In this document: positions 3,085-50,461 of the stretch, one piece after another
How the letters are laid out: each line of letters starts with the position of its first letter
Position numbering within the stretch: position 1 is the stretch's first letter
From: Actinomycetota bacterium
GTDB taxonomy: Bacteria > Actinomycetota > Actinomycetes > Mycobacteriales > SCTD01
Reading direction: 5' to 3'
Length of the DNA: 64,000 nt
Assembly: GCA_046723735.1 (NCBI GenBank)
Contig: JBKOVB010000056.1
Location: 14,776 to 78,775 of the forward strand
Notes under the pieces: generated by a model
The model's input: only the letters and a program-made list of their open reading frames with translations
Databases searched by the model: none
What the model was told of the DNA's origin: nothing
Program-made: the position numbers and the translations under genes

Positions 3085-3629
3085 GAGGCGGGCTCGGTCA
3101 CGGTGCGGCCGTGGCGCACGTCCACGCGGTGCAGGACGTCACCGGCCCGCAGGTGCACCTCCTGGTCCAGCACCCCGAGCCAGACTGACCCGGGCACCGC
3201 GTCGCTCTCCCACGCCAGCCCGTCCGCGTCGTAGGCCGCCAGGACGTCGTCGTCGAGCAGCAGCGCCAGCTCGCCCACCGGTTCGAAGTGCCGCACGGTC
3301 CAGCGGTCGATGCGCCACCAGCGGTCGGGGTCGCGGCTGTCGACGAGGTACGGCGGGCCGCCGGCCGCCACGAAGACCGTGTCCGGGTGCGGCCACGAGG
3401 CCACGAGGTTCAGCCGGCCGGGCAGGTTGTCCGAGGCGAACACGCCGGTCCAGACCGGGCCGCCGAGCGGGGTGATGCGCAGCCACACGCCGTCAGAGCC
3501 ACCCTCGCGACTGGCCCCGGGGTAGTAGACGACGTGGCGGGGCTGCCCGGGCAGGGTGGTGACCCGAAGCTTGTGCTCCTGGACGGCCTCCCAGCTATGC
3601 GGAAAGGCGTCCAGCCACTCCGCGCTCAT
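3078..3629 (-). CDS. hypothetical protein, Trp-rich, no family recognised
   Basis: 183-aa ORF with ordinary amino-acid composition, whereas the overlapping alternative frames are Arg/Pro/Ala junk. ATGA overlap with the tsaB stop and GTGA-type overlap with the rimI start. Confidence 0.7.
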   Translation of the reverse strand: MSAEWLDAFPHSWEAVQEHKLRVTTLPGQPRHVVYYPGASREGGSDGVWLRITPLGGPVWTGVFASDNLPGRLNLVASWPHPDTVFVAAGGPPYLVDSRDPDRWWRIDRWTVRHFEPVGELALLLDDDVLAAYDADGLAWESDAVPGSVWLGVLDQEVHLRAGDVLHRVDVRHGRTVTEPASW

Positions 3630-4213
3630 CGCGCGCTGAGCTCCACCGCGTCGGGGCGCCGCAGGTAGAGCGGGGTGAGCGGGAGCTGCTCGTGCCGCGA
3701 CGCCCGGGCAAGTGCCCCGACCTGCGGGTACCGCGGCTCGGCATCGGTCGCGAACCCGTAGAGCTGCGCCCCGTCGCCGACCACTCGCCGACCGGCCAGC
3801 GCCGCGCGGGCCTCGTCAGGCTTGGTGACGTGCGGTCCGTCGACGCGGCGGGCGTCGTCGTCGTACACCGCCCAGTAGACCTCCTTGCGACGGGCGTCGG
3901 TGACGACTCCGGTCCCGGGAGCCGCGAGGCCGTCGAGCGAGCACACGCCGACGACCGGCAGGCCGCGCGCCTCCGCAAAGGCCGCGGCCGTCACGATGCC
4001 GACCCGGAGCCCGGTGAACGGGCCGGGGCCGACGCCGACGACGACGGTGTCAGGGGTGCCCTTGGTGAGGACGGCCTGCACGTTCAGCGCGAGCAGCTCG
4101 CCGTGCCTGCGGGCGTCGATCTCGACGGCTTCGGCGACGACCGTCAGGTCGTCGAGGTCCACCAACCCGGCGGTGACGGCGGGCGTGGAGGTGTCGAGGA
4201 CGAGGGCGAGCAC
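3626..4213 (-). CDS. tsaB: tRNA threonylcarbamoyladenosine biosynthesis protein TsaB
   Basis: 195-aa ORF with N-terminus MLALVLDTSTPAVTAGLV typical of TsaB/YeaZ. Lies in the t6A gene context. Confidence 0.85.
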   Translation of the reverse strand: MLALVLDTSTPAVTAGLVDLDDLTVVAEAVEIDARRHGELLALNVQAVLTKGTPDTVVVGVGPGPFTGLRVGIVTAAAFAEARGLPVVGVCSLDGLAAPGTGVVTDARRKEVYWAVYDDDARRVDGPHVTKPDEARAALAGRRVVGDGAQLYGFATDAEPRYPQVGALARASRHEQLPLTPLYLRRPDAVELSAR

Positions 4214-4220
4214 GCCTCCG

Positions 4221-4226
4221 AGGCTA
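4221..4226 (-). promoter_or_regulatory. candidate -10 box TAGCCT, 7 nt upstream of the tsaB GTG (possible leaderless start)
   Basis: Minus-strand sequence is CGACTCCCGTC-N12-CTAGCCT-cggaggc-GTG. It matches TANNNT. The same architecture occurs upstream of pepN. Confidence 0.3.
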
Positions 4227-4239
4227 GTCGCGCGGGCCC

Positions 4240-4290
4240 GACGGGAGTCGCGTCACGCCCCGTCCCGCGGCGCGCGAACGGGGCGGCGCA
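4240..4290. repeat. copy A (right arm missing) of the 62-nt nested palindromic element; its inner hairpin is a likely terminator of the acyl-CoA synthetase gene
   Basis: GACGGGAGTCG-cgtc-aCGCCCCGT-(14 nt)-ACGGGGCGg. Arm positions and spacing are identical to the copy at 16870..16931. Confidence 0.6.
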
Positions 4291-4294
4291 CACG

Positions 4295-5833
4295 TCAGAC
4301 CGGGGGCTTGGCGTCCGCCAGCTCGCGCAGGACGTTCTTGGCGACCTTCTCGAGGGTGGCGCGGGGGAACTCCTCGACGACGTACACCGCCCGGGGCACC
4401 TTGAAGTCCGCAAGGTTCGCCGCGCACGCCTCGATGATCTGCTTCTCGAAGACGCTGTCGTCGGGCTCCGCGCCCGGGCCCTTGATGACGAACGCGACCG
4501 GCACCATCGACAGCCACTCGTGCTGCTTGCCCACGACGGCGATCTCCGCGATGCCCGGCACCGTGCGGCACATGTCCTCGACCTCGCGGGCGCTGACGTT
4601 CTCACCGCCGACCTTGATGAGGTCCTTGTCGCGGTCGGTGTAGACGACGTTGCCGCCCTCGACGACCTTGACCATGTCGCCTGTCTTGAACCAGCCGTCC
4701 TCGGTGAACGAGGCGGCGTTCGCCTCGGGGTTGTCGAAGTACTCAAGGAAGAGCTGCACGCCGCGGGTGCCCCGCACCCACAGCTCGCCGGTCTCGCCCT
4801 GGGCGACCGGCTCGCCGGTCTCCTTCGACACGACCAGGCACTCGTAGCCCGGCGTGGGGTGCCCCATCGACATCCGCGGCCAGCCCTCCTGGGGCCGACC
4901 GGTGATCGCGTGCGTCACCGTCTCGGTCATCCCGTAGGCGGCGTAGACCCGCAACCCGAGCCAGGCGTCCACCTCGGGCATGATCATTCCGAAGACGCCG
5001 GCGCGGATCGAGTGCTCCTTCGGCGCCTCAGGCAGCTGGAACGCGCTGAACACGAACGGCATCAGCGAGATGTGCGTGACCTGGTGCTTCTGCACGACCG
5101 GCCAGAACCCGGACGTCGACCACTTCGGGGTCAGCACGACGGTGGCGCCGACGCCGAGCACCGCCCAGATCGACCAGCTCTGCGCGTTGACGTGGAAGAA
5201 CGGCAGGTAGACGAGGTAGATGTCGTCGCCGTTCAGGTCGACGTTCCGCGGGCCGATCCGGCCCGCCCAGACGGCGTTCGCGTGCGTGTGCACGACAGCC
5301 TTCGGCTTCGACGTGGTGCCGCTGGTGAAGAGGATCCCGGCGGGCAGCATCGGCTCGGGCTCGCGGGTCGGAGCGGCGTCGGCGTCGCCGTACAGCATCT
5401 CGAGCTCGTCGGTCGTCACGATCCAGCGCAGCTGCGGTCCCGCCTCGCGCACCAGGTCCGCGTACGACGGCTGCACGACCGCCGCAACGCACTGCGCCTT
5501 CTCGACGAAGTAGCCGACCTCGGCCGCGACCGAGCGCGTGTTGGTCGTGACGCCGACCGCGCCGATCCAGGCGCAGGCGTACCACCCGAGCACCGCCTCC
5601 GGGCAGTTGTCCGCGTGGATCAGGACCTTGTCGCCCTTGGCGATGCCACGCGCGACGAACCCGGCCGCGAGCCGCTTCACGTCGGTGAGGAACGCGGCGT
5701 AGGTCCAGCTGCGGCCCTCGCCCTCGCGCGGCTCCCACACGAGGAACGGGTGGTCGGGCTTGACGGTCGCCCAGTGGGTGAGCAGCCAGGGGATGTCCTG
5801 GCCCTGCATCTGGAGCGCGGCGACGTCGGCCAT
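4295..5833 (-). CDS. AMP-dependent acyl-CoA synthetase/ligase
   Basis: AMP-binding motif ILFTSGTTSKPKAVVHTH, plus GYGMTET-like and GDxV motifs. Start set to the ATG at 5833, preceded by AAAGGA 8 nt upstream. Confidence 0.85.
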   Translation of the reverse strand: MADVAALQMQGQDIPWLLTHWATVKPDHPFLVWEPREGEGRSWTYAAFLTDVKRLAAGFVARGIAKGDKVLIHADNCPEAVLGWYACAWIGAVGVTTNTRSVAAEVGYFVEKAQCVAAVVQPSYADLVREAGPQLRWIVTTDELEMLYGDADAAPTREPEPMLPAGILFTSGTTSKPKAVVHTHANAVWAGRIGPRNVDLNGDDIYLVYLPFFHVNAQSWSIWAVLGVGATVVLTPKWSTSGFWPVVQKHQVTHISLMPFVFSAFQLPEAPKEHSIRAGVFGMIMPEVDAWLGLRVYAAYGMTETVTHAITGRPQEGWPRMSMGHPTPGYECLVVSKETGEPVAQGETGELWVRGTRGVQLFLEYFDNPEANAASFTEDGWFKTGDMVKVVEGGNVVYTDRDKDLIKVGGENVSAREVEDMCRTVPGIAEIAVVGKQHEWLSMVPVAFVIKGPGAEPDDSVFEKQIIEACAANLADFKVPRAVYVVEEFPRATLEKVAKNVLRELADAKPPV

Positions 5834-5857
5834 GGGCGGGTCCTTTCGGAGCAGAAC

Positions 5858-5871
5858 TGAAACGTGTTCTA
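5858..5871. promoter_or_regulatory. KstR-type (TetR family) operator-like palindrome TAGAACACGTTTCA
   Basis: Matches the published KstR consensus TnnAACnnGTTnnA at all 8 fixed positions. It ends 24 nt upstream of the acyl-CoA synthetase ATG. Confidence 0.4.
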
Positions 5872-5920
5872 CACCATCAGTAACTCCGGCGACCACCCCG
5901 CGACCACTTCACCCCGCTGT

Positions 5921-5989
5921 TCATGATCAACAGGACTTCCTGCCCCGACACGCCCGGCGCGTCGTGACCAGAAGTCCTGTTGATCATGA
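5921..5989. repeat. 19-bp perfect inverted repeat (TCATGATCAACAGGACTTC / GAAGTCCTGTTGATCATGA) with a 31-nt loop
   Basis: Read directly. It lies between the fadD-like stop (6010) and the next gene's start (5833), and is AT-richer than its surroundings. Could act as a terminator. Confidence 0.6.
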
Positions 5990-12524: not shown

Positions 12525-14354
12525 TCACTCCACCGTGACGGACTTGGCGAGGTTGCGCGGCTGGTCGACGTCGAGCCCACGGGCCCGGGCCACCTCGGCG
12601 GCGAGCACCTGCATCGGCACCAGTGTGAGCAGCGGGGTGAGCAGCGACTTGGTGTCCGGCACCCGGATGACGGTGTCGGCGTACGGCGTCACCGCCTCGT
12701 CCCCGTCGGTCGCGATCACGACGGTGCGGGCGCCGCGCGCTCGCACCTCCTGGACGTTGTTGACGAGCTTCGGCTGCAGCGCGTGCCGGGGGGCCACGAC
12801 CAGCACCGGGGTGCCCGGCTCCACGAGCGCGATCGGGCCGTGCTTGATCTCGCCGGCCGGGAAGCCCTCCGCGCTGACGTAGGCGAGCTCCTTGAGCTTC
12901 AGCGCCCCCTCGAGGGCGACCGGGTACCCGACGTGCCGGCCCAGGAACAGCACCCGCTGCTCGTCGGCCAGGTCGCGGGCCAGCTCTCGGACCGGCTCCA
13001 TGCGGGACAGCACCTCGGTGAGCAGGTCCGGGATCGACTGCAGGTCTCGCAGGTGCGAGCGCACCTCGTCGGCGTCGCGGGTGCCGCGCACCTGGGCAAG
13101 GTAGAGCCCCACGAGGTACATCGCGGTGATCTGCGTCATGACCGCCTTGGTCGACGCGACCGCCACCTCCGGGCCACCGCGGGTGTACAGCGCCGCGTCG
13201 CTCTCGCGCGCGATGGTCGAGCCGACCGTGTTGGTCACTGCGAGCACCTTGGCCCGCTGGGCGCGCGCGTGCCGTAGCGCCTCGAGCGTGTCGGCCGTCT
13301 CGCCGGACTGGGAGATCGCGATGACGAGGGTGTGCCGGCCGAGCACCGGGTCGCGGTAGCGGAACTCGCTGGCCACCTCGATCTGCACCGGCAGCCGGCA
13401 CCAGCGCTCGATGGCGTACTTGCCGACCAGCCCCGAGTAGTACGCCGAGCCGCAGCCGATGATGAAGACCTGGTCGATCTCGCGGACGTCCTCGTCGCTC
13501 ATCGACAGCTCGTCGAGGTGCAGCAGCCCATCCGCGGTGAGCCGACCGCCGAGCGTCTCGCGCACCGCCGACGGCTGCTCCTCGATCTCCTTGAGCATGA
13601 AGAACTCGTGGCCGCCCTTCTCGGCGGCATCGGTGTCCCAGTCGACGTGGTAGCTCGTGCCCTCGGCCACATTGCCGTCGAGGTCGGTGACGACGACGCC
13701 CGTACGACGGAGCTCCACCACCTGGTCCTGGTCGACGGCACGCGCCTCGCGGGTGTGCGCGATGAAGGCCGTGACGTCGGAGCCGAGGAAGTTCTCGCCC
13801 TCGCCGAGCCCGACCACCAGCGGCAGGTTGCGGCGGGCCGCCACGACGAGCCCCGGCTCGTCCTGGTGGGCCACCACGAGCACGAACGAGCCCTCGAGGT
13901 CCTTGCAGATCGACCGGACCGTGGCGGCCAGGTCGCCGTCGTACCGCTCCTCGACGAGGTGGGCGACGACCTCGGTGTCGGTGTCGGAGCGGCGCAGGTG
14001 TCCGCGCTCCTCGAGGCCGGCGACGAGCTCCTCGAAGTTCTCGATGGTGCCGTTGTGCACCACCGCGACCTTCTCGGAGCAGTCCAGGTGCGGGTGCGCG
14101 TTGCGGTCGGTGGGGGCGCCGTGCGTGGCCCAGCGGGTGTGCCCGATGCCGAGCGACCCCGGCAGCGCACGGGTGGCGAGGGCCTTCTCGAGGTTGACGA
14201 GCTTGCCGGCCCGGCGCTCGGTCTGCAGCACGCCCCCGGGGCTCAGGACGGCGACGCCGGCGCTGTCGTAGCCGCGGTACTCCAGCCGCCTCAGGCCGCC
14301 GAGCACGACCTCCAGGGCGTCCTTGTCACCGACGTAGCCCACGATGCCGCACAT
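12525..14354 (-). CDS. glmS: glutamine--fructose-6-phosphate aminotransferase
   Basis: N-terminal MCGIVGY, two SIS domains, and C-terminal KSVTVE. Confidence 0.95.
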
Positions 14355-14363
14355 GGCGCCAGG

Positions 14364-16844
14364 CTAATGGGTTACCTGGGCGCGCAGCGCGCGTCTCAGG
14401 TCGTCGAGCTGCTCGAGGACCACCCTGCGCGCGGCCGGGTGCAGCCCATCGTCCGCGATCAGCCCCTCCACCTTCGTGACCACCTCCGGCTGAACGAGCG
14501 TGGAGGGGAAGCCGAACTGCGTGAGGGCTTGGGCGAGCTGCGGCGACAGCGACTGCCACCAGCCGTCGACGGCGGACAGGTAGGCGTCGACGTACGGCGA
14601 CAGCAGCTCCTCCTGGCCGCGCTGCCAGAAGCCGGCCCCCATGGTCCGGGCCTGCGCGGTGGTGACCTGCCCGGCAGCCAGGGCCTCCCAGGTGCGCCGC
14701 TTGACCTGCTCGTCCGGCAGCGCGGCCAGCGCCGCCTCCGCCTGCAGCTGCCCGCTCGCCGTGCGGTCGCGGGCGAGCTCCTGGGCGACGTCGTCCTCGC
14801 AGAGCAGCCCGAGGGCGGCAGCGCGGCGGACGACGTGCCAGCGCAGCTCGGCGTCGACGACCAGCCCGTCGGGGACGCCGGTGCCGCCGAGCAGCCCGCG
14901 CAGCAGGTCCGCGTCGTGGGTGGCTGCGACCGCGGCCCGCACCCGGACCAGCTGCAGGTCGCTGCCCGGCTCGACCGGGGCGGCCCAGCAGGAGGCCGCG
15001 ATCGTGTCGAGCAGCTCCCTGGACGGGAGTCGCCCTGCGCCCCCGCCAGCCGTCCCCTCCTGGGGCGCACCGCGACTCCCGTCCACGTACAGCGCCGCGG
15101 CGCGGGTGGCCCAGGCGAGCAGCGTCTCGACGAGCGACGGGTCGTGCTCGCTGCCGACCCCGGCGAGCACTGCCCCGACGAAGCCGTCCGCGGACAGCTC
15201 CGCGTCGCGGCACGCGTCCCACAGCGCCGCCCAGCACACCGCCCGGGCCAGCCGGTCCTCCACCTCGCCGAGCGTGGCCAGCACGGTGGCGAGCGAACGC
15301 TCGTCGAAGCGGACCTTCGCGAAGGTCAGGTCGCCGTCGTTGAGCAGCACCAGGTCCGCCGGCGCGACCTCGGTGGCGGTGACCGCGCCGGAGACCTCGA
15401 CCGGCACCCGTTCGCGCAGCCGCAGCGCGCCGTCCACCCGGTCGTAGCAGCCGACCTCGATCACGTGAGGCCGCAGCGGCTCCCCCTCCTGGACGACCGT
15501 GAGGCGTCCGTCGTCCCAGCGCGGACGCAGCGTCGCCACCCCGCTGGTCTCCAGCCAGAGCCGGGCCCAGCTCTGCAGGTCGCGCCCGCTGACTCGCTCG
15601 AGCGCGCCGAGCAGGTCCTCGAGGTCGGTGTTGCCGAAGGCGTGCGCGGTGAGGTAGTCACGCAGCCCCCGGAAGAAGGTGTCCTCGCCGACGAAGGCGA
15701 CGAGCTGGCGCAGCACCGAGGCGCCCTTGGCGTACGAGATCCCGTCGAAGTTGAGCAGGGCGCTGCGCGTGTCGGGCACCGGTCCGGCCACCGGGTGCGT
15801 CGTGGGCAGCTGGTCGGCGCGGTAGCCCCACGCCTTGCGCCCCAGGCAGAAGTCGGCCCAGGCCCCATCGAAACGGGTCGTCGCCTCGATGGTGTGCAGG
15901 CCCATGAACTCGGCGAACGACTCGTTGAGCCACACGCCGTCCCACCAGCGCATCGTCACGAGGTCGCCGAACCACATGTGCGCCATCTCGTGCGCCACCA
16001 CCTGCCCCCGCAGCCGGCGGTTGCCCTCGGTGGTGCGCGACCGGTAGAGGAAGCCCTCGTCGTTGAAGGTCACGAGGCCGGGGTTCTCCATCGCCCCCGC
16101 GTTGAACTCCGGCACGAAGACCTGGCCGTAGCTGTCCCCGAACGGATACCTGCTGCCGAAGTCGCGCTGCTGCTGGTCGAGGCACTGAGCCGTGATCTCG
16201 AGCAGCTCGTCGGCCTCGAGGTGCGGAGCCATGGATGCCCGGCACCAGACCGCGAGCTCGATGCCGTCGTGGGTGCGCGTCTCGCCGTACCAGGGACCCG
16301 CCGCCAGCGTCACGAGGTACGGCGACAGGCGGGCCGTCTCGGCGAAGCGCCACTGCCCGTCGTGCAGCTCCCCGCGGGTGTTCGACAGCACCCGGTGCCC
16401 GTCGGGGGCCGTCACCGACAACCGCACGACGGCCTTGAGGTCGGGCTGGTCGAAGCAGGCGAAGAACCGCTGGGCGTCGTCGAGGAAGGCCTGCGCGTAC
16501 ACGTAGACCTGCTCGTCGGCGGGGTCGACGAACCGGTGCAGCCCCTCGCCGCTGCGGGTGTAGGCGCACACCGCCTCGACCTGCGCGACGTGCTCGCCGC
16601 CGAGCCCGTCGAGGTGCAGCCGGTTGCCGTCCAGGGTGAGCGGGCGGCCGTCGAGGGTCGCGCTGACGAGGCGCACACAGTCCAGCTCGAGGAAGGTCCG
16701 CGCACCCTCCACGGCCGTGAACCGGACCTCCGTGCGGGAGCCGTAGTGCTCGGTCCCCTGCGTCAGGTCCAGCGCCACGTCGTACGACGAGACGCTGACC
16801 GCAGCGGCACGGGCGCGTGCCTCATCCTCGGTGAGGTTCCGCAT
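14364..16844 (-). CDS. pepN: aminopeptidase N (M1 family)
   Basis: GAMEN motif and HEMAHMWFGDLVT...WLNESFAE zinc site. 826 aa. Confidence 0.9.
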   Translation of the reverse strand: MRNLTEDEARARAAAVSVSSYDVALDLTQGTEHYGSRTEVRFTAVEGARTFLELDCVRLVSATLDGRPLTLDGNRLHLDGLGGEHVAQVEAVCAYTRSGEGLHRFVDPADEQVYVYAQAFLDDAQRFFACFDQPDLKAVVRLSVTAPDGHRVLSNTRGELHDGQWRFAETARLSPYLVTLAAGPWYGETRTHDGIELAVWCRASMAPHLEADELLEITAQCLDQQQRDFGSRYPFGDSYGQVFVPEFNAGAMENPGLVTFNDEGFLYRSRTTEGNRRLRGQVVAHEMAHMWFGDLVTMRWWDGVWLNESFAEFMGLHTIEATTRFDGAWADFCLGRKAWGYRADQLPTTHPVAGPVPDTRSALLNFDGISYAKGASVLRQLVAFVGEDTFFRGLRDYLTAHAFGNTDLEDLLGALERVSGRDLQSWARLWLETSGVATLRPRWDDGRLTVVQEGEPLRPHVIEVGCYDRVDGALRLRERVPVEVSGAVTATEVAPADLVLLNDGDLTFAKVRFDERSLATVLATLGEVEDRLARAVCWAALWDACRDAELSADGFVGAVLAGVGSEHDPSLVETLLAWATRAAALYVDGSRGAPQEGTAGGGAGRLPSRELLDTIAASCWAAPVEPGSDLQLVRVRAAVAATHDADLLRGLLGGTGVPDGLVVDAELRWHVVRRAAALGLLCEDDVAQELARDRTASGQLQAEAALAALPDEQVKRRTWEALAAGQVTTAQARTMGAGFWQRGQEELLSPYVDAYLSAVDGWWQSLSPQLAQALTQFGFPSTLVQPEVVTKVEGLIADDGLHPAARRVVLEQLDDLRRALRAQVTH
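15022..15083. repeat. copy C of the 62-nt nested palindromic element, inside the pepN coding sequence
   Basis: GACGGGAGTCG-ccct-GCGCCCC-(18 nt)-GGGGCGC-accg-CGACTCCCGTC. Translated in the pepN frame as VDGSRGAPQEGTAGGGAGRLPS. Confidence 0.65.
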
Positions 16845-16850
16845 CCTCAG

Positions 16851-16856
16851 ACCCTA
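16851..16856 (-). promoter_or_regulatory. candidate -10 box TAGGGT, 6 nt upstream of the pepN ATG (possible leaderless start)
   Basis: Minus-strand sequence is CGACTCCCGTC-N12-CTAGGGT-ctgagg-ATG. It matches TANNNT and has the same layout as upstream of tsaB. Confidence 0.3.
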
Positions 16857-16869
16857 GGGCGTGCGGAGG

Positions 16870-16931
16870 GACGGGAGTCGGCTCGCGCCCCGTGGCGGCG
16901 GGCCGCCACGGGGCGCAGAGCGACTCCCGTC
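16870..16931. repeat. copy B (complete) of the 62-nt nested palindromic element; likely terminator of the S53 peptidase gene
   Basis: GACGGGAGTCG-gctc-GCGCCCCGTGGCGGC-gg-GCCGCCACGGGGCGC-agag-CGACTCCCGTC. Outer stem 11 bp, inner stem about 14-15 bp. Confidence 0.7.
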
Positions 16932-16944
16932 GAGGGCAGGTGGC

Positions 16945-18471
16945 TCAGGCGGCCGTCAGGGCAGCGACCCAGCCCGGCGCCCACGGCGTGCCCCATCCGG
17001 TGGTGAGGTCGTAGCCGCTGGTCGTCGGGTAGCCCGGCACCGGGTCGGGCGTGAGGAAGCCGTCGGCCGTGTAGGCCCACATCCGGTTGCTGTCGAGGTG
17101 CCCGCTCGGCGTCACGCCGTAGGTGTGCGGGACCACGTCGCGCAGCGCCGAGGCGCGGTCGAAGGACCCGCCGTACAGCACCGGGTTGAGGTTGCCGATC
17201 GGACCCTTGCCCGCGGCGTGCCGCGACTGGTTGGCGATCGCGGTCAGCGCCGCCACCTGCGGCGACGAGGCGGAGGTGCCGCCGAAGACGCCCCAGCGCG
17301 GGCCCCCCTCGATGCGCGGGTAGTACGAGATGAAGGTCAGCACGCCGCCGTTGACGGCCGCGTTCCAGGCCACGTCGGGGACGCCGCGGTGGTTTCCGAC
17401 GACCCCGGCCACTCCGTCCTGGTACGCCGGCCGCCCGTACACGGTCGACAGGCCGCCGCCGGTCGCGATCGGTCCCCAGCCCTCGTTCCAGACCGCCTCG
17501 GAGGACCCGCCCGCGTTCCAGTTCCAGTACGCGAGGTTGCGCGAGCCGTCGTCGTTGAACGGCTTGTCCTGCTGCGGGTCCCAGGTCCAGCCGTCCTGCA
17601 CCTGGGTGCCGCCGACCGACGTCACGTACGGCGAGACGTTCGGGTAGCTGACGGACGGGTGGTCGACGGTGGCCGACTGCCGGTGCGCGCGACCCACCCC
17701 GAGCGAACCGTCGTCTCCGGACGATGAGAAGAACGTGTCACCCTTCGCGAGCCCGTGCTTGAAGGTCTCGTCGAAGCGGGCGAACTGGGTGGACGCCGAC
17801 GAGCCGGCAAACGCCTCCTCGCTGGTGCCGAACGACATCGAGAAGACCGTGCCCGCCGGGTAGCGGTCGATGGCCCAGTCGATGGCCTTCATCATGTTCG
17901 GCAGTCCCTGCACACCCTGCGTCTCGGCGGGCTGCACGGCCACGAGCACGATGTGCGCCTTGGGTGCGATCGCGTAGGCCCACTGCACGTCGAGGTTGGC
18001 CTCGCCGGCCCAGCCGTCGGCAGCCGTCGGGCCGGACTGGCCGCTGCCGTTGCCGGGCGGGTTCTTGTAGTCGATCGGTCCCTGCGGGAACACCTGCTCC
18101 ACGTCGGGCGCCGGCCCGCCGAAGGTCTGGGCGAAGAACTGCACGTCGTGGACGGCGGTCGGGCTGCCGTAGGAGTCGACCAGCACGATCGTCTGGCCGG
18201 CGCCGTCGTTGCTGCCCGCGATCGGGCCGAGGCCGTAGAACGCCCGGATCTGGTCCGGTCCGTAGCAGTGGACGGTGGTGGACACCCGGTTGTCGGGCGC
18301 TGGCCGCTGGCACGCGACGCCGAGCGCACCCGGCGAGGCTGCCTGGAAGGCGGACTCGGGCGCCCGGGCGGCGAACGGGTGGACGGCGATCGCGGCGGCC
18401 ACCGGTGCGGTGGCAGGTGCCGACGCCAGCGCCAGGGCCGCGGCAGGAGCGGCCAGGACGAGCTTGCGCAT
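16945..18471 (-). CDS. secreted serine peptidase, S53 (sedolisin)-like
   Basis: Ala-rich signal peptide MRKLVLAAPAAALALASA. Also YGPDQIRAFYGL, SSSGDDGS and GGTSASSPQVAAL motifs. Family call from memory. Confidence 0.75.
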   Translation of the reverse strand: MRKLVLAAPAAALALASAPATAPVAAAIAVHPFAARAPESAFQAASPGALGVACQRPAPDNRVSTTVHCYGPDQIRAFYGLGPIAGSNDGAGQTIVLVDSYGSPTAVHDVQFFAQTFGGPAPDVEQVFPQGPIDYKNPPGNGSGQSGPTAADGWAGEANLDVQWAYAIAPKAHIVLVAVQPAETQGVQGLPNMMKAIDWAIDRYPAGTVFSMSFGTSEEAFAGSSASTQFARFDETFKHGLAKGDTFFSSSGDDGSLGVGRAHRQSATVDHPSVSYPNVSPYVTSVGGTQVQDGWTWDPQQDKPFNDDGSRNLAYWNWNAGGSSEAVWNEGWGPIATGGGLSTVYGRPAYQDGVAGVVGNHRGVPDVAWNAAVNGGVLTFISYYPRIEGGPRWGVFGGTSASSPQVAALTAIANQSRHAAGKGPIGNLNPVLYGGSFDRASALRDVVPHTYGVTPSGHLDSNRMWAYTADGFLTPDPVPGYPTTSGYDLTTGWGTPWAPGWVAALTAA

Positions 18472-20899: not shown

Positions 20900-20977
20900 G
20901 AGTTCTCTTCTCTCGACTAAGTCTCTGCCGGGCAGGGTTCAGCGGACGCGCCACACTGTCACCCACAGCAGCCGACA

Positions 20978-21007
20978 AGACTACCTGAGCCGCTCGTCGC
21001 CCTGCAA
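20978..21007 (-). promoter_or_regulatory. candidate sigma-70-type promoter of rplM-rpsI (TTGCAG-N18-TAGTCT)
   Basis: Minus-strand hexamers were read by eye. The -10 box fits TANNNT. The leader would be about 70 nt. Confidence 0.35.
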
Positions 21008-21060
21008 AGAGCGGGTACGGCGGTCAGCCCCGCACCTCGCCCCCACCGTGATCGTGGGAA

Positions 21061-24831: not shown

Positions 24832-24862
24832 CCCGGTACGGCGGTCAGCCCGCCGTACCGGG
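24832..24862 (-). terminator. GTAC-core hairpin between rpoA and rplQ
   Basis: CCCGGTACGGCGG-tcagc-CCGCCGTACCGGG, a 13-bp perfect stem 12 nt after the rpoA stop. Confidence 0.5.
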
Positions 24863-31866: not shown

Positions 31867-31904
31867 CCGAGGGCCGTCGTACCGGCTGGTACGACGGCCC
31901 TCGG
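31867..31904 (-). terminator. 17-bp perfect hairpin between rplO and secY
   Basis: CCGAGGGCCGTCGTACC-ggct-GGTACGACGGCCCTCGG. Confidence 0.5.
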
Positions 31905-41675: not shown

Positions 41676-41718
41676 CGCGGTACGGCGGCCGAGTGCTGGA
41701 CCCGGCCGCCGTACCGCG
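41676..41718 (-). terminator. GTAC-core hairpin between tuf and rpsJ
   Basis: CGCGGTACGGCGGCC-(13 nt)-GGCCGCCGTACCGCG, a 15-bp perfect stem. Confidence 0.5.
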
Positions 41719-50422: not shown

Positions 50423-50461
50423 GGCCGGTACGGCGGGCAGCAGGTGCTCGCCGTACCGGCC
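50423..50461 (-). terminator. GTAC-core hairpin between rpoB and rpoC (possible attenuator)
   Basis: GGCCGGTACGGCG-(13 nt)-CGCCGTACCGGCC, a 13-bp perfect stem starting 6 nt after the rpoB stop. Confidence 0.4.

Follow-up and report, generated by a model that had tools for sequence, protein, structure and literature searches.

A palindromic repeat translated within pepN of an actinobacterium, and its probable place among REP/REPIN-type elements moved by Y1 transposases

The 64-kb stretch of actinobacterial DNA analysed here (referred to as the window) has a G+C content of 70.7 % and contains three sites that share an 11-nt core, GACGGGAGTCG. One site lies within pepN and the other two lie between genes. 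The sites, numbered as copies 1 to 3, and the genes next to them are as follows.

3626-4213, minus strand: tsaB-like gene (Pfam TsaD family), downstream of copy 3
4240-4290, no strand assigned: copy 3, a half element (putative REP singlet) made up of the core GACGGGAGTCG, 4 nt and the inner stem ACGCCCCGT...ACGGGGCG
4295-5896, minus strand: acyl-CoA synthetase (AMP-binding) gene (Pfam AMP-binding and AMP-binding_C), with copy 3 directly 3' of it
14364-16844, minus strand: pepN, encoding an aminopeptidase N of 826 aa (Pfam Peptidase_M1_N, Peptidase_M1 and ERAP1_C), the host of copy 1
15022-15083, no strand assigned: copy 1, a complete 62-nt doublet, in frame inside pepN (residues 588-608)
16870-16931, no strand assigned: copy 2, a complete 62-nt doublet and near-perfect palindrome (30-nt arms, 2-nt centre) in the spacer between the peptidase gene and pepN
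16945-18471, minus strand: gene for an S8/S53-like secreted peptidase of 508 aa (Pfam Peptidase_S8, E 5.6e-8), with copy 2 directly 3' of it

When both strands of the window are counted, the exact 11-mer occurs five times, at 4240, 15022, 15073 (minus), 16870 and 16921 (minus). The expectation from shuffled sequences is 0.32 ± 0.57, and none of 100 shuffles reached five. Extending the pattern to GACGGGAGTCG-N5-CGCCCC still gives an exact match at each of these five arms. Allowing one mismatch gives nine occurrences in the window where 6.4 are expected, which is not significant, and the signal therefore resides in the exact copies. The arms form two complete 62-nt hairpins and one half element, and the sequence at all three sites is exactly as had been claimed in an earlier reading of the DNA made without database searches (the sequence-only reading).

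Copies 1 and 2 have in common a 22-nt unit (core + N4 + GCGCCCC) that is present twice in each, as an inverted pair around a centre of 16-18 nt. The centres are unrelated, and the inner stems are found at identical offsets from GACGGGAGTCG. Self-complementarity inside the core is limited to GAC-N4-GTC, and the unit ends are GACG/CGTC. The order in copy 1 is GACGGGAGTCG, 4 nt, GCGCCCC, an 18-nt non-palindromic centre, GGGGCGC, 4 nt and CGACTCCCGTC; its palindrome continues for another 2 nt in both directions (66 nt in all, 15020-15085), beginning with TG and ending with CA. The two full copies are identical at 45 of 62 positions. As the spacers and the whole of the centre differ, neither can have been copied recently from the other. 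The centre of copy 1 is indeed non-palindromic, as had been noted, but that it has lost an earlier self-complementarity goes beyond the observation, as non-palindromic centres are seen in related elements elsewhere, too.

Both full copies fold as strong hairpins (z -7 to -10). The RNA fold of copy 1 has energies of -47.0/-54.8 kcal/mol (z -7.1/-7.3) and that of copy 2 -63.1/-62.6 kcal/mol (z -8.1/-9.6), with z-scores for single-stranded DNA of -6.6 and -10.0, respectively. The fold of the half copy at 4240-4290 is unexceptional (z +0.2/-2.4). Searching the whole window against Rfam gave no match above the gathering threshold.

The segment of PepN that corresponds to copy 1 (16-19 residues) is missing from all 23 orthologues aligned (58-83 % identity), including the one that is 83 % identical. 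PepN homologues are 804-823 aa long, and relative to the DNA of the closest orthologue copy 1 represents a net gain of 54 nt. The spacer between the peptidase gene and pepN is 100 nt in the window and 27 nt in a relative (L198), in which the flanking peptidase gene is orthologous (79 % identity); the peptidase orthologue is absent from L192, L196 and L197. No copy of the core was found in four syntenic loci from relatives (74 kb), where there was one single-mismatch match only. Since the segment is missing from 23/23 PepN orthologues and the relative has the shorter spacer, at least two of the copies are lineage-specific insertions. The orthologue alignment thus settled in favour of a lineage-specific segment the question that the sequence-only reading had left to it. 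L197 and L198 were also considered as empty sites for copy 3 and rejected; because a sigma/anti-sigma pair and only one AMP-binding gene are present there, the junction is not orthologous.

Within pepN, copy 1 is translated in frame as V-DGSRGAPQEGTAGGGAGRLPS (residues 588-608), and all six reading frames of the element are free of stop codons. In the AlphaFold2 model of PepN, residues 591-604 have a pLDDT below 50 and form a coil between the helices at 569-586 and 608-621. The insert is, according to this model, probably a disordered loop between two helices that the protein tolerates.

The two intergenic copies lie 13 nt (copy 2) and 4 nt (copy 3) past the stop codons of co-oriented genes. 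From the end of copy 2 it is 25 nt to the pepN start, and a CCTAGGGTC motif directly downstream of the copy is conserved in relatives. A 4-nt direct repeat (plus-strand GAGG) surrounds copy 2; there is no direct repeat at the ends of copy 1. Copy 3 has no second outer arm, and a manual comparison for a decayed right arm matched at 4/11 positions in the best register, with none recognisable.

Outside the window, the arrangement GACGGGAGTCG-N30-60-CGACTCCCGTC was found in at least 120 metagenome contigs, and 90 of 127 metagenome copies extend to GGGGACGGGAGTCG. The left arm of copy 2, GGGACGGGAGTCGG, shares 14 nt with the units flanking a transposase gene in one of these contigs (L085). The likeness between window and metagenome copies is confined to 11-14 nt: interiors are unrelated, and comparison of the window with 120 metagenome loci revealed no nucleotide similarity beyond the arms. 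The repeats on the flanks of the metagenome copies are inverted (GGG...CCC), not direct. Seven of the 127 (~5 %) are in frame inside genes with Pfam domains on both sides, and one of these, in a methylmalonyl-CoA mutase gene, is common to several orthologues that are 79-84 % identical and missing in others. Read as protein, the paired arms of the family give DGSR...RLP, (G)TGV...DSR and RES...TPV. The proposal of the sequence-only reading that a mobile repeat has entered both intergenic DNA and an ORF is supported by the orthologues that lack the segment and by the arms in at least 120 metagenome contigs.

Among 185,579 GTDB species-representative genomes, which do not include the source genome, no second genome had the combination of arms and inner stem. 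Searching for one arm with the inner stem gave 71 single matches in unrelated taxa; as the partner arm was missing from all of them, these are at chance level. Plasmid sequences gave only insignificant partial matches to copy 2 (blastn, E ≥0.05), an Rfam search of 14 metagenome loci bearing the element gave no matches, and the arm sequence was found in the literature only in unrelated primers. Two other identities were considered and rejected. Integron attC sites were considered for metagenome contigs with two copies ~800 bp apart, and were dropped because the intervening ORF encodes a Y1 transposase. A tRNA origin of the arms was considered as two loci (L083 and L107) contain ...GGGTTCGACTCCCGTC; ARAGORN finds no tRNA, and this class was treated as unrelated.

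In five metagenome contigs (L141, L122, L147, L087 and L085), hairpins are found on both sides of an ORF of ~230 aa, and a core-flanked gene of this type is likewise present in L199. The ORF product matches Pfam Y1_Tnp (E 9e-9) and the TnpA-REP structure in PDB 4ER8 (E 1e-6), and its best NCBIfam match is REP_Tyr_transpos, at 69 bits, below the model cut-off of 80. Neither the HUH motif nor the catalytic Tyr varies among these core-flanked transposases, which also have an MxRRxR N-terminus, an NP(L/V)RAG(L/M)V...WSS block and a long C-terminal extension ending in RGRPxKK. In named Pirellulales and Planctomycetia MAGs, GGGGACGGGAGTC (AAAGGGGACGGGAGTCATT / AATGACTCCCGTCCCC) adjoins the same transposase gene, and a transposase of this kind is also encoded in GCA_050175055.1. 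Specificity is indicated by paralogous transposases in L141 and L081, 50 % identical, which have a different repeat, AATTACCCCAGGGGTAATT, on their flanks, and by more distant members, which have variant cores. The named taxa among the best 120 transposase matches are Pirellulales, Planctomycetia, Terriglobia and Nitrospiraceae, and none is actinobacterial. Homologues of the transposase number more than 8,000. A tblastn search of the 64-kb window found no Y1 transposase. That the same 11-14-nt core lies beside transposases only ~50 % identical suggests a fixed recognition site, which would be biochemically testable.

We consider it likely that the three sites are non-autonomous elements of the REP/REPIN type that were moved by a Y1 transposase, with the pepN copy tolerated in its disordered inter-helix loop. 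Each unit would consist of the core GACGGGAGTCG and an inner stem, N4-GCGCCCC(G), that is specific to the lineage. The 62-nt hairpin, a REPIN-like doublet, would be made up of two such units, inverted and with a short variable spacer between them, and the site at 4240 would be a singlet. The elements would be moved in trans by a RAYT/TIRYT-type Y1 (HUH) tyrosine transposase, encoded by a single-copy gene, that would recognise the folded unit on single-stranded DNA, then cut and rejoin it with no target duplications. We infer that the source genome has, or once had, a transposase of the core-flanked clade and that this enzyme moved the copies. One doublet would have entered pepN where it encodes an inter-helix loop of variable length in the C-terminal ERAP1_C domain, adding ~18-21 residues that are probably disordered. 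The gene would have stayed open because the element is stop-free in six frames and the net change is +54 nt. Copies 2 and 3 would occupy the usual places of REPs, a few nucleotides 3' of a stop codon, where they would be transcribed and may act as 3' hairpins.

An unlikely alternative is that these are host hairpins (3'-end structures, terminators or attenuators) whose local spread was due to recombination or template switching, as from the spacer upstream of pepN into pepN itself, with no dedicated transposase involved and the likeness of the arms to the transposase-flanking core elsewhere a coincidence. In its favour, just 1.8 kb separates the two full copies, which enclose most of pepN, each intergenic copy comes directly after a stop codon, no transposase is present within the window, and the likeness to the metagenome elements is only 11-14 nt. 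However, on neither strand is copy 2 or copy 3 followed by a T-run, and neither canonical intrinsic terminators nor terminator-like sites were found in 14000-17500. The full copies also differ in their spacers and entire centre (45/62 identical), and 10.7 kb separates the third copy from the closer of the two. An inverted pair of arbitrary 11-mers was estimated to give only a few chance matches in a collection as large as the one searched, and the pair seen here matches a large family of repeats flanking Y1 genes.

That the copies are classical MITEs derived from an IS with a DDE transposase, with the 11-nt arms as terminal inverted repeats and target-site duplications at the ends, is very improbable. 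Conserved ends around a variable interior, the GAGG repeat around copy 2 and the TG...CA limits of the pepN palindrome would all fit such an origin. However, there is no direct repeat at the ends of copy 1, the flanks of the metagenome copies are inverted (GGG...CCC), 62 nt is far under the usual sizes of MITEs, and the sole transposase found beside the arms is a Y1 enzyme, of a class that does not generate duplications. Finally, that nothing has moved and the pepN stretch is ordinary coding sequence, alike through high G+C content (70.7 %) and codon constraints, can be set aside, for although the core is not over-represented with one mismatch allowed, there are five exact arms against 0.32 expected, the hairpin z-scores are -7 to -10, and the orthologue alignment refutes it, the segment being missing in every orthologue including that at 83 % identity.

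REPIN-RAYT systems (Nunvar 2010; Bertels and Rainey 2011, PMC3116915; Ton-Hoang 2012) are among the closest known systems, and 4ER8 is the structure of the E. coli TnpA-REP. The number of REP/REPIN copies per genome is typically tens to hundreds; three sites were seen in 64 kb. The window elements resemble REPINs in having two inverted short units and a less conserved spacer in one hairpin, in occurring also as singlets, in units that flank a single Y1/HUH transposase gene (here in metagenome contigs), in being mostly just 3' of genes (two of the three in the window) and in the lack of target duplications. They differ in that classical REPs have a GTAG tag and a palindromic unit of ~14 bp, whereas the window unit has no GTAG, a GACG/CGTC end and a 3-bp internal dyad. 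REPINs are ~100 bp, and the window doublet is 62 nt with one copy translated. The metagenome transposases are longer (~230 against 165 aa), and their NCBIfam RAYT scores stay under the cut-off. The window also comes from an actinobacterium, and no REPIN family was found described in that phylum.

REPs are typically located just 3' of genes (PMC3733652), and both intergenic window copies are 4-13 nt past a stop codon. REPINs have been called 'almost exclusively extragenic' (PMC3116915), and intragenic REPs that are read in frame are already on record from bacteria other than Rickettsia (Di Nocera et al. 2013, PMC3733652). The same survey describes TIRtrons (TIRYT), RAYT-like genes with flanking inverted repeats that contain GGGGWSAS, are moderately repeated and are often dimers, from Acidobacteria, Rhodopirellula and Stenotrophomonas, with no actinobacterial example (PMC3733652). 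The metagenome and MAG transposases have the N-terminal, WSS-block and C-terminal motifs of the TIRYT protein sml 4509, and the window core GGGGACGG fits GGGGWSAS at 7/8 positions, with the window showing the repeat half only. The exact repeat GACGGGAGTCG does not appear in Di Nocera et al. 2013 or its supplements (PMC3733652). In CGTC-tagged REPs, among them RPE-4 and RPE-6, the stem is 8-9 bp long and begins with A/T pairs, the loop measures 4-5 nt, the CGTC tag is unpaired, there is a CCA tail, and no transposase is associated (PMC3733652). The window element shares with them the CGTC end, with its complement GACG at the start, as well as head-to-head dimers, and their intragenic dimers encode 20-30 residues. 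However, its 11-bp arms are G/C-rich, its CGTC is paired, A/T pairs are lacking, and in other genomes it is accompanied by a transposase.

Rickettsia palindromic elements (RPEs), reportedly described by Ogata et al. in 2000 and 2002, are ~100-150 bp, AT-rich and known only from Rickettsia. Like copy 1, they are palindromic repeats found in frame in conserved protein genes, where they add a surface peptide, with other copies intergenic. There is no sequence relation and the host here is not Rickettsia, and the analogy is functional only. The parallel with RPEs drawn in the sequence-only reading holds for the in-frame behaviour. It is less special than was implied because in-frame intragenic REPs are documented outside Rickettsia (PMC3733652), and the class is REP/REPIN or 'TIR repeat', tied to Y1 transposases. 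The pepN case is a new example of a known phenomenon and not a new kind of element. The same reading knew of no described actinobacterial counterpart; we also found none, and 'Actinobacteria' is absent from the REP/RAYT literature texts searched.

On the reading as REP/REPIN-type elements, the pepN copy would add an actinobacterial case, tied to an identifiable transposase clade, to the short list of palindromic mobile repeats that enter proteins without destroying them. With ~5 % of the sampled copies in frame in conserved genes and one inherited across related species, the family may be a natural system for gauging the frequency with which mobile DNA makes new protein loops. For annotation, the extra PepN segment should not be taken as an assembly error, nor should such hairpins in G+C-rich MAGs be called terminators by default.

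A broader proposal is tentative, and we judge it possible but somewhat improbable. It is that one RAYT/TIRYT clade keeps a nearly fixed core of ~14 nt, GGGGACGGGAGTCG, across Planctomycetota, Acidobacteriota and, via the window, Actinomycetota, and that its hairpins have repeatedly been inserted in frame in conserved housekeeping proteins (PepN, methylmalonyl-CoA mutase, UvrD, MiaB-like and MacB-like proteins) and have persisted through speciation. If true, new protein loops would arise from a pan-bacterial source that resembles RPEs and has a transposase that can be identified, and palindromic repeats with GACG/CGTC ends would gain their first dedicated transposase.

The 11-nt core GACGGGAGTCG occurs exactly five times in the window, counting both strands (at 4240, 15022 and 16870, and on the minus strand at 15073 and 16921), against an expectation of 0.32 ± 0.57, and none of 100 dinucleotide-preserving shuffles of the window reached five. 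The longer pattern GACGGGAGTCG-N5-CGCCCC matches exactly at those same five arms. When one mismatch is tolerated, the 11-mer shows no enrichment in the window (9 versus 6.4 expected), so the element family there consists of three sites only. The window thus contains a repeated hairpin element, and the sequences first described at the three sites were recovered exactly on re-reading. The copies and the two adjacent genes are as follows.

Element copies and adjacent genes
15022-15083, copy 1: in-frame within pepN, encoding residues 588-608; local palindrome of 66 nt
16870-16931, copy 2: begins 13 nt past the peptidase stop codon and stops 25 nt short of the pepN start
4240-4290, copy 3: one outer arm and inner stem; 4 nt separate its end from the stop codon of an AMP-binding gene
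14364-16844, minus strand: pepN, 826 aa (Peptidase_M1_N, Peptidase_M1, ERAP1_C)
16945-18471 (8438-9973 in the relative L198): S8/S53-like peptidase gene, between glmM and pepN

Copies 1 and 2 are both 62 nt long and identical at 45 of 62 positions. Each forms a long hairpin, and the folding suggested in the sequence-only reading gave z-scores of −6.6 to −10.0 for this complete pair (−7.1 to −9.6 as RNA; −6.6 and −10.0 as single-stranded DNA). Copy 3, incomplete as had been claimed, is not exceptional as a fold.

Alignment of PepN with 23 orthologues (58-83 % identity), the comparison proposed earlier, revealed a gap of 16-19 residues precisely at the element in all 23, which refutes a coincidence of coding constraints. 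Between anchors, the pepN DNA measures 80 nt in the window versus 26 nt in the closest relative, so that the window is longer by a net 54 nt, equal to 18 codons. On these alignments, copy 1 is a lineage-specific in-frame insertion. Since 62 is not divisible by three, a few bases must also have been gained or lost in the event, and the junctions are not exactly fixable because loop length varies among the orthologues. Neither full copy has a stop codon in any of the six reading frames, so any frame-preserving insertion would be read through. In the AlphaFold2 model of PepN (mean pLDDT 81), residues 591-604 have pLDDT values under 50 and are modelled as a coil that links helices 569-586 and 608-621 in the helical C-terminal domain. 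This predicted coil is the sort of site that would tolerate an insertion, and the pepN copy may well be neutral or nearly so.

This neighbourhood has the conserved ribosomal-protein/rpoBC/glmM-pepN-glmS order, with every gene on the minus strand. The window and L198 share the S8/S53-like peptidase gene (79 % identity; no precomputed Pfam match for the L198 product). It is absent from the corresponding loci of three other relatives, L192, L196 and L197, and is therefore a variable insert within an otherwise conserved gene order. As L198 has the orthologous peptidase and a peptidase-pepN spacer of 27 nt, versus 100 nt in the window, copy 2 is also an insertion. In the four syntenic loci of relatives (74 kb), the core GACGGGAGTCG has no copy and a single one-mismatch match. 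Gene order at the copy 3 junction is different in the relatives compared, which therefore offer no valid empty site for this copy. On these comparisons, two of the three copies, 1 and 2, are insertions relative to the relatives, and the original reading, a mobile palindromic repeat in both intergenic DNA and an ORF, was essentially right.

In the window (~16850-16860, minus strand), and likewise in each of the four relatives, a CCTAGGGTC motif stands 5-7 nt before the pepN start codon. This motif probably serves as the −10 element (TAGGGT) of a pepN transcript with a short leader or none; in the window, copy 2 was inserted just upstream and left it undisturbed. The intergenic copies would be transcribed as 3′ hairpins of the genes upstream. 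In L197 (11401-14360) and L198 (18727-21658), a sigma-70/anti-sigma-like pair, preceded by a promoter-like GGAACC-N17-CGTCTT motif, lies between the AMP-binding gene and tsaB. The window (3626-5896) has no such pair; its place is taken by a second AMP-binding gene, as in L196. Copy 3, a REP singlet, is located at the junction where the window and L197/L198 differ.

Genomes of 185,579 species (one per species, the source genome not among them) were scanned for one arm plus inner stem. The 71 single matches, in unrelated taxa, are at chance level, with no partner arm beside any of them, and no representative genome carries the exact unit of the window. The two-arm pattern GACGGGAGTCG-N30-60-CGACTCCCGTC matches in at least 120 metagenome contigs. 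Among the contigs listed there are 127 elements of 52-82 nt, with interiors of several unrelated classes; the arms are longer (GGGGACGGGAGTCG...CGACTCCCGTCCCC) in 90 of the 127, with TTT next in 80. These contigs have G+C contents of 41-74 % and share no similarity with the window apart from the element. In one subclass (L075, L086 at 127-183, L096, L109, L157, L185 and L187), the arms are tandem heptamers, (GGGAGTC)n/(GACTCCC)n, with more GGGA/TCCC-GACGGGA repeats in the flanks; the core thus seems, from its sequence, able to expand by slippage. A perfect 64-nt palindrome (L083 1039-1102/L107 576-639; 41 % G+C contig) has arms like a tRNA T-arm/acceptor end (...GGTCATGGGTTCGACTCCCGTC). ARAGORN found no tRNA there, and this palindrome is probably unrelated, a T-arm-like sequence that fitted the pattern.

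In several contigs, two element copies 650-900 bp apart enclose an ORF of ~230 aa for a Y1 transposase (Pfam Y1_Tnp, E 9e-9). Its top NCBIfam match is 'REP-associated tyrosine transposase' (69 bits, under the cut-off of 80), and it matches the E. coli TnpA-REP structure 4ER8 (E 1e-6). Both the HUH motif (HWH) and the tyrosine of RYVERNP are invariant among the homologues, and those in L141, L122, L147, L087 and L085 (51-76 % identity) have hairpins on both sides. Two paralogues with 50 % identity (L141 8497-9159; L081 5654-6316), second transposase genes in the same contigs, are flanked by another palindrome, AATTACCCCAGGGGTAATT, so repeat and enzyme go together, a clean case of such pairing within one genome. 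The C-termini ...NGDGSRF (L122 856-1545 and L147 2240-2917, both minus strand) and ...TGTGVVFT (L141 4836-5528, plus strand) are repeat-encoded, and the 3′ repeat therefore overlaps the end of the transposase gene. The family is very large (at least 8,000 homologues at E ≤ 1e-10), and labelled members among the best 120 belong to Pirellulales, Planctomycetia, Terriglobia and Nitrospiraceae. In one Pirellulales MAG and one Planctomycetia MAG, AAAGGGGACGGGAGTCATT and AATGACTCCCGTCCCCTTT border the gene, and members further removed have the variant cores GGGGACGGGAATCA, GGTCGGGAGTCT and GGTGTCAGGAACC. These flanks show the core of the window beside Y1 transposases of other phyla as well, repeat and enzyme being specific for each other. 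The arrangement is that of a REPtron/TIRtron, a lone tyrosine transposase gene between short repeats that it presumably mobilises.

REPINs, two inverted REP units and a spacer, are mobilised by a single-copy RAYT and are reported as 'almost exclusively' extragenic (10.1101/2021.07.10.451892). Across eight phyla, Di Nocera et al. 2013 (PMC3733652) recorded REPs tagged with GTAG or with CGTC; for the CGTC group they found no transposase. Intragenic REPs are also described there, with dimers that code for 20-30 residues and a frequent location in repair genes, uvrD among them. The same authors named 'TIRYT' the RAYT-like genes between inverted repeats bearing a GGGGWSAS motif, and dispersed families of these repeats occur in Acidobacteria, Rhodopirellula and Stenotrophomonas (PMC3733652). 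The metagenome transposases resemble long TIRYTs such as sml 4509 in their MxRRxR N-terminus, their NPxRAGxV...WSS block and a C-terminal end of RGRPxKK. Both translated palindromic repeats and the association of repeat with transposase are thus already published. The REP/RAYT literature whose text was searched for Actinobacteria does not mention the word, and the arm sequence was not found in any relevant paper.

In-frame copies are recurrent in the element family, as 7 of the 127 metagenome elements listed lie inside long ORFs with coding-type third-position G+C and Pfam domains on either side.

Hosts of in-frame metagenome copies
MiaB-like radical-SAM enzyme
UvrD
LuxR/TPR regulator
Methylmalonyl-CoA mutase (insert in L120 911-2488, minus strand, and in database proteins P0242, P0243, P0245, P0254 and P0349; Acidobacteria-like organisms)
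GHL10 hydrolase
MacB/FtsX permease
HD-domain protein

The peptides begin GTGVVS, DGSR or RES and finish DSR, RLPS or TPV, corresponding to the three reading frames of the arms. The mutase insert, GTGV[VF]S...[NT]DSR with a variable centre, is common to several orthologues (79-84 % identity) and missing in others, so such inserts can be old and inherited. It ranges from ~12 to ~39 residues with the ends GTGV.S and.DSR kept, and the arms appear, on this alignment, to outlast the centre even within a protein.

We conclude that an actinobacterial MAG carries here a REP/REPIN-type (TIRYT-type) repeat, one copy of which has become part of PepN. By analogy with IS200/IS605 and TnpA-REP enzymes, the transposase would recognise the folded unit on single-stranded DNA and move it without target duplication, and the source genome presumably has or had a transposase of this clade. 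Local recombination of a hairpin made purely by the host is a less likely origin: it leaves the coincidence of the arms with a transposase-linked core unexplained, and the full copies differ too much for one to derive recently from the other. A DDE-type MITE is unlikely, given the lack of consistent target duplications, a length of only 62 nt, and flanks that are inverted, not direct, in copies elsewhere. A canonical terminator is unsupported, as there is no T-run. What is notable in the REP/REPIN-type repeat is the actinobacterial host, the near-identical core in common with Planctomycetota and the ~5 % in-frame rate among the elements listed.

Other repeats are present in the window. A second palindromic family, CCGGTACGGCGG-loop-CCGCCGTACCGG, is found at 24833-24861, 41676-41718 and 50423-50461, with a variant at 31867-31904 and a single unit at 21013-21030. 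Its members are located immediately past tuf, in the rpoB-rpoC spacer and in further spacers of the ribosomal-protein cluster. With at most one mismatch, CCGCCGTACC occurs 53 times in the window (14 exact) versus 10.8 ± 3.5 expected, and the second-family motif is also in the glmM-pepN spacer of L192. This could be another REP-like family or shared terminator hairpins. An inverted repeat with 34-nt arms, TCATGATCAACAGGA...TCCTGTTGATCATGA (5921-5989), separates two AMP-binding (acyl-CoA synthetase) genes. A relative with 74 % identity (L196 ~20975-21050) keeps it in the corresponding place, and it resembles an operator or a regulatory hairpin more than a mobile repeat.
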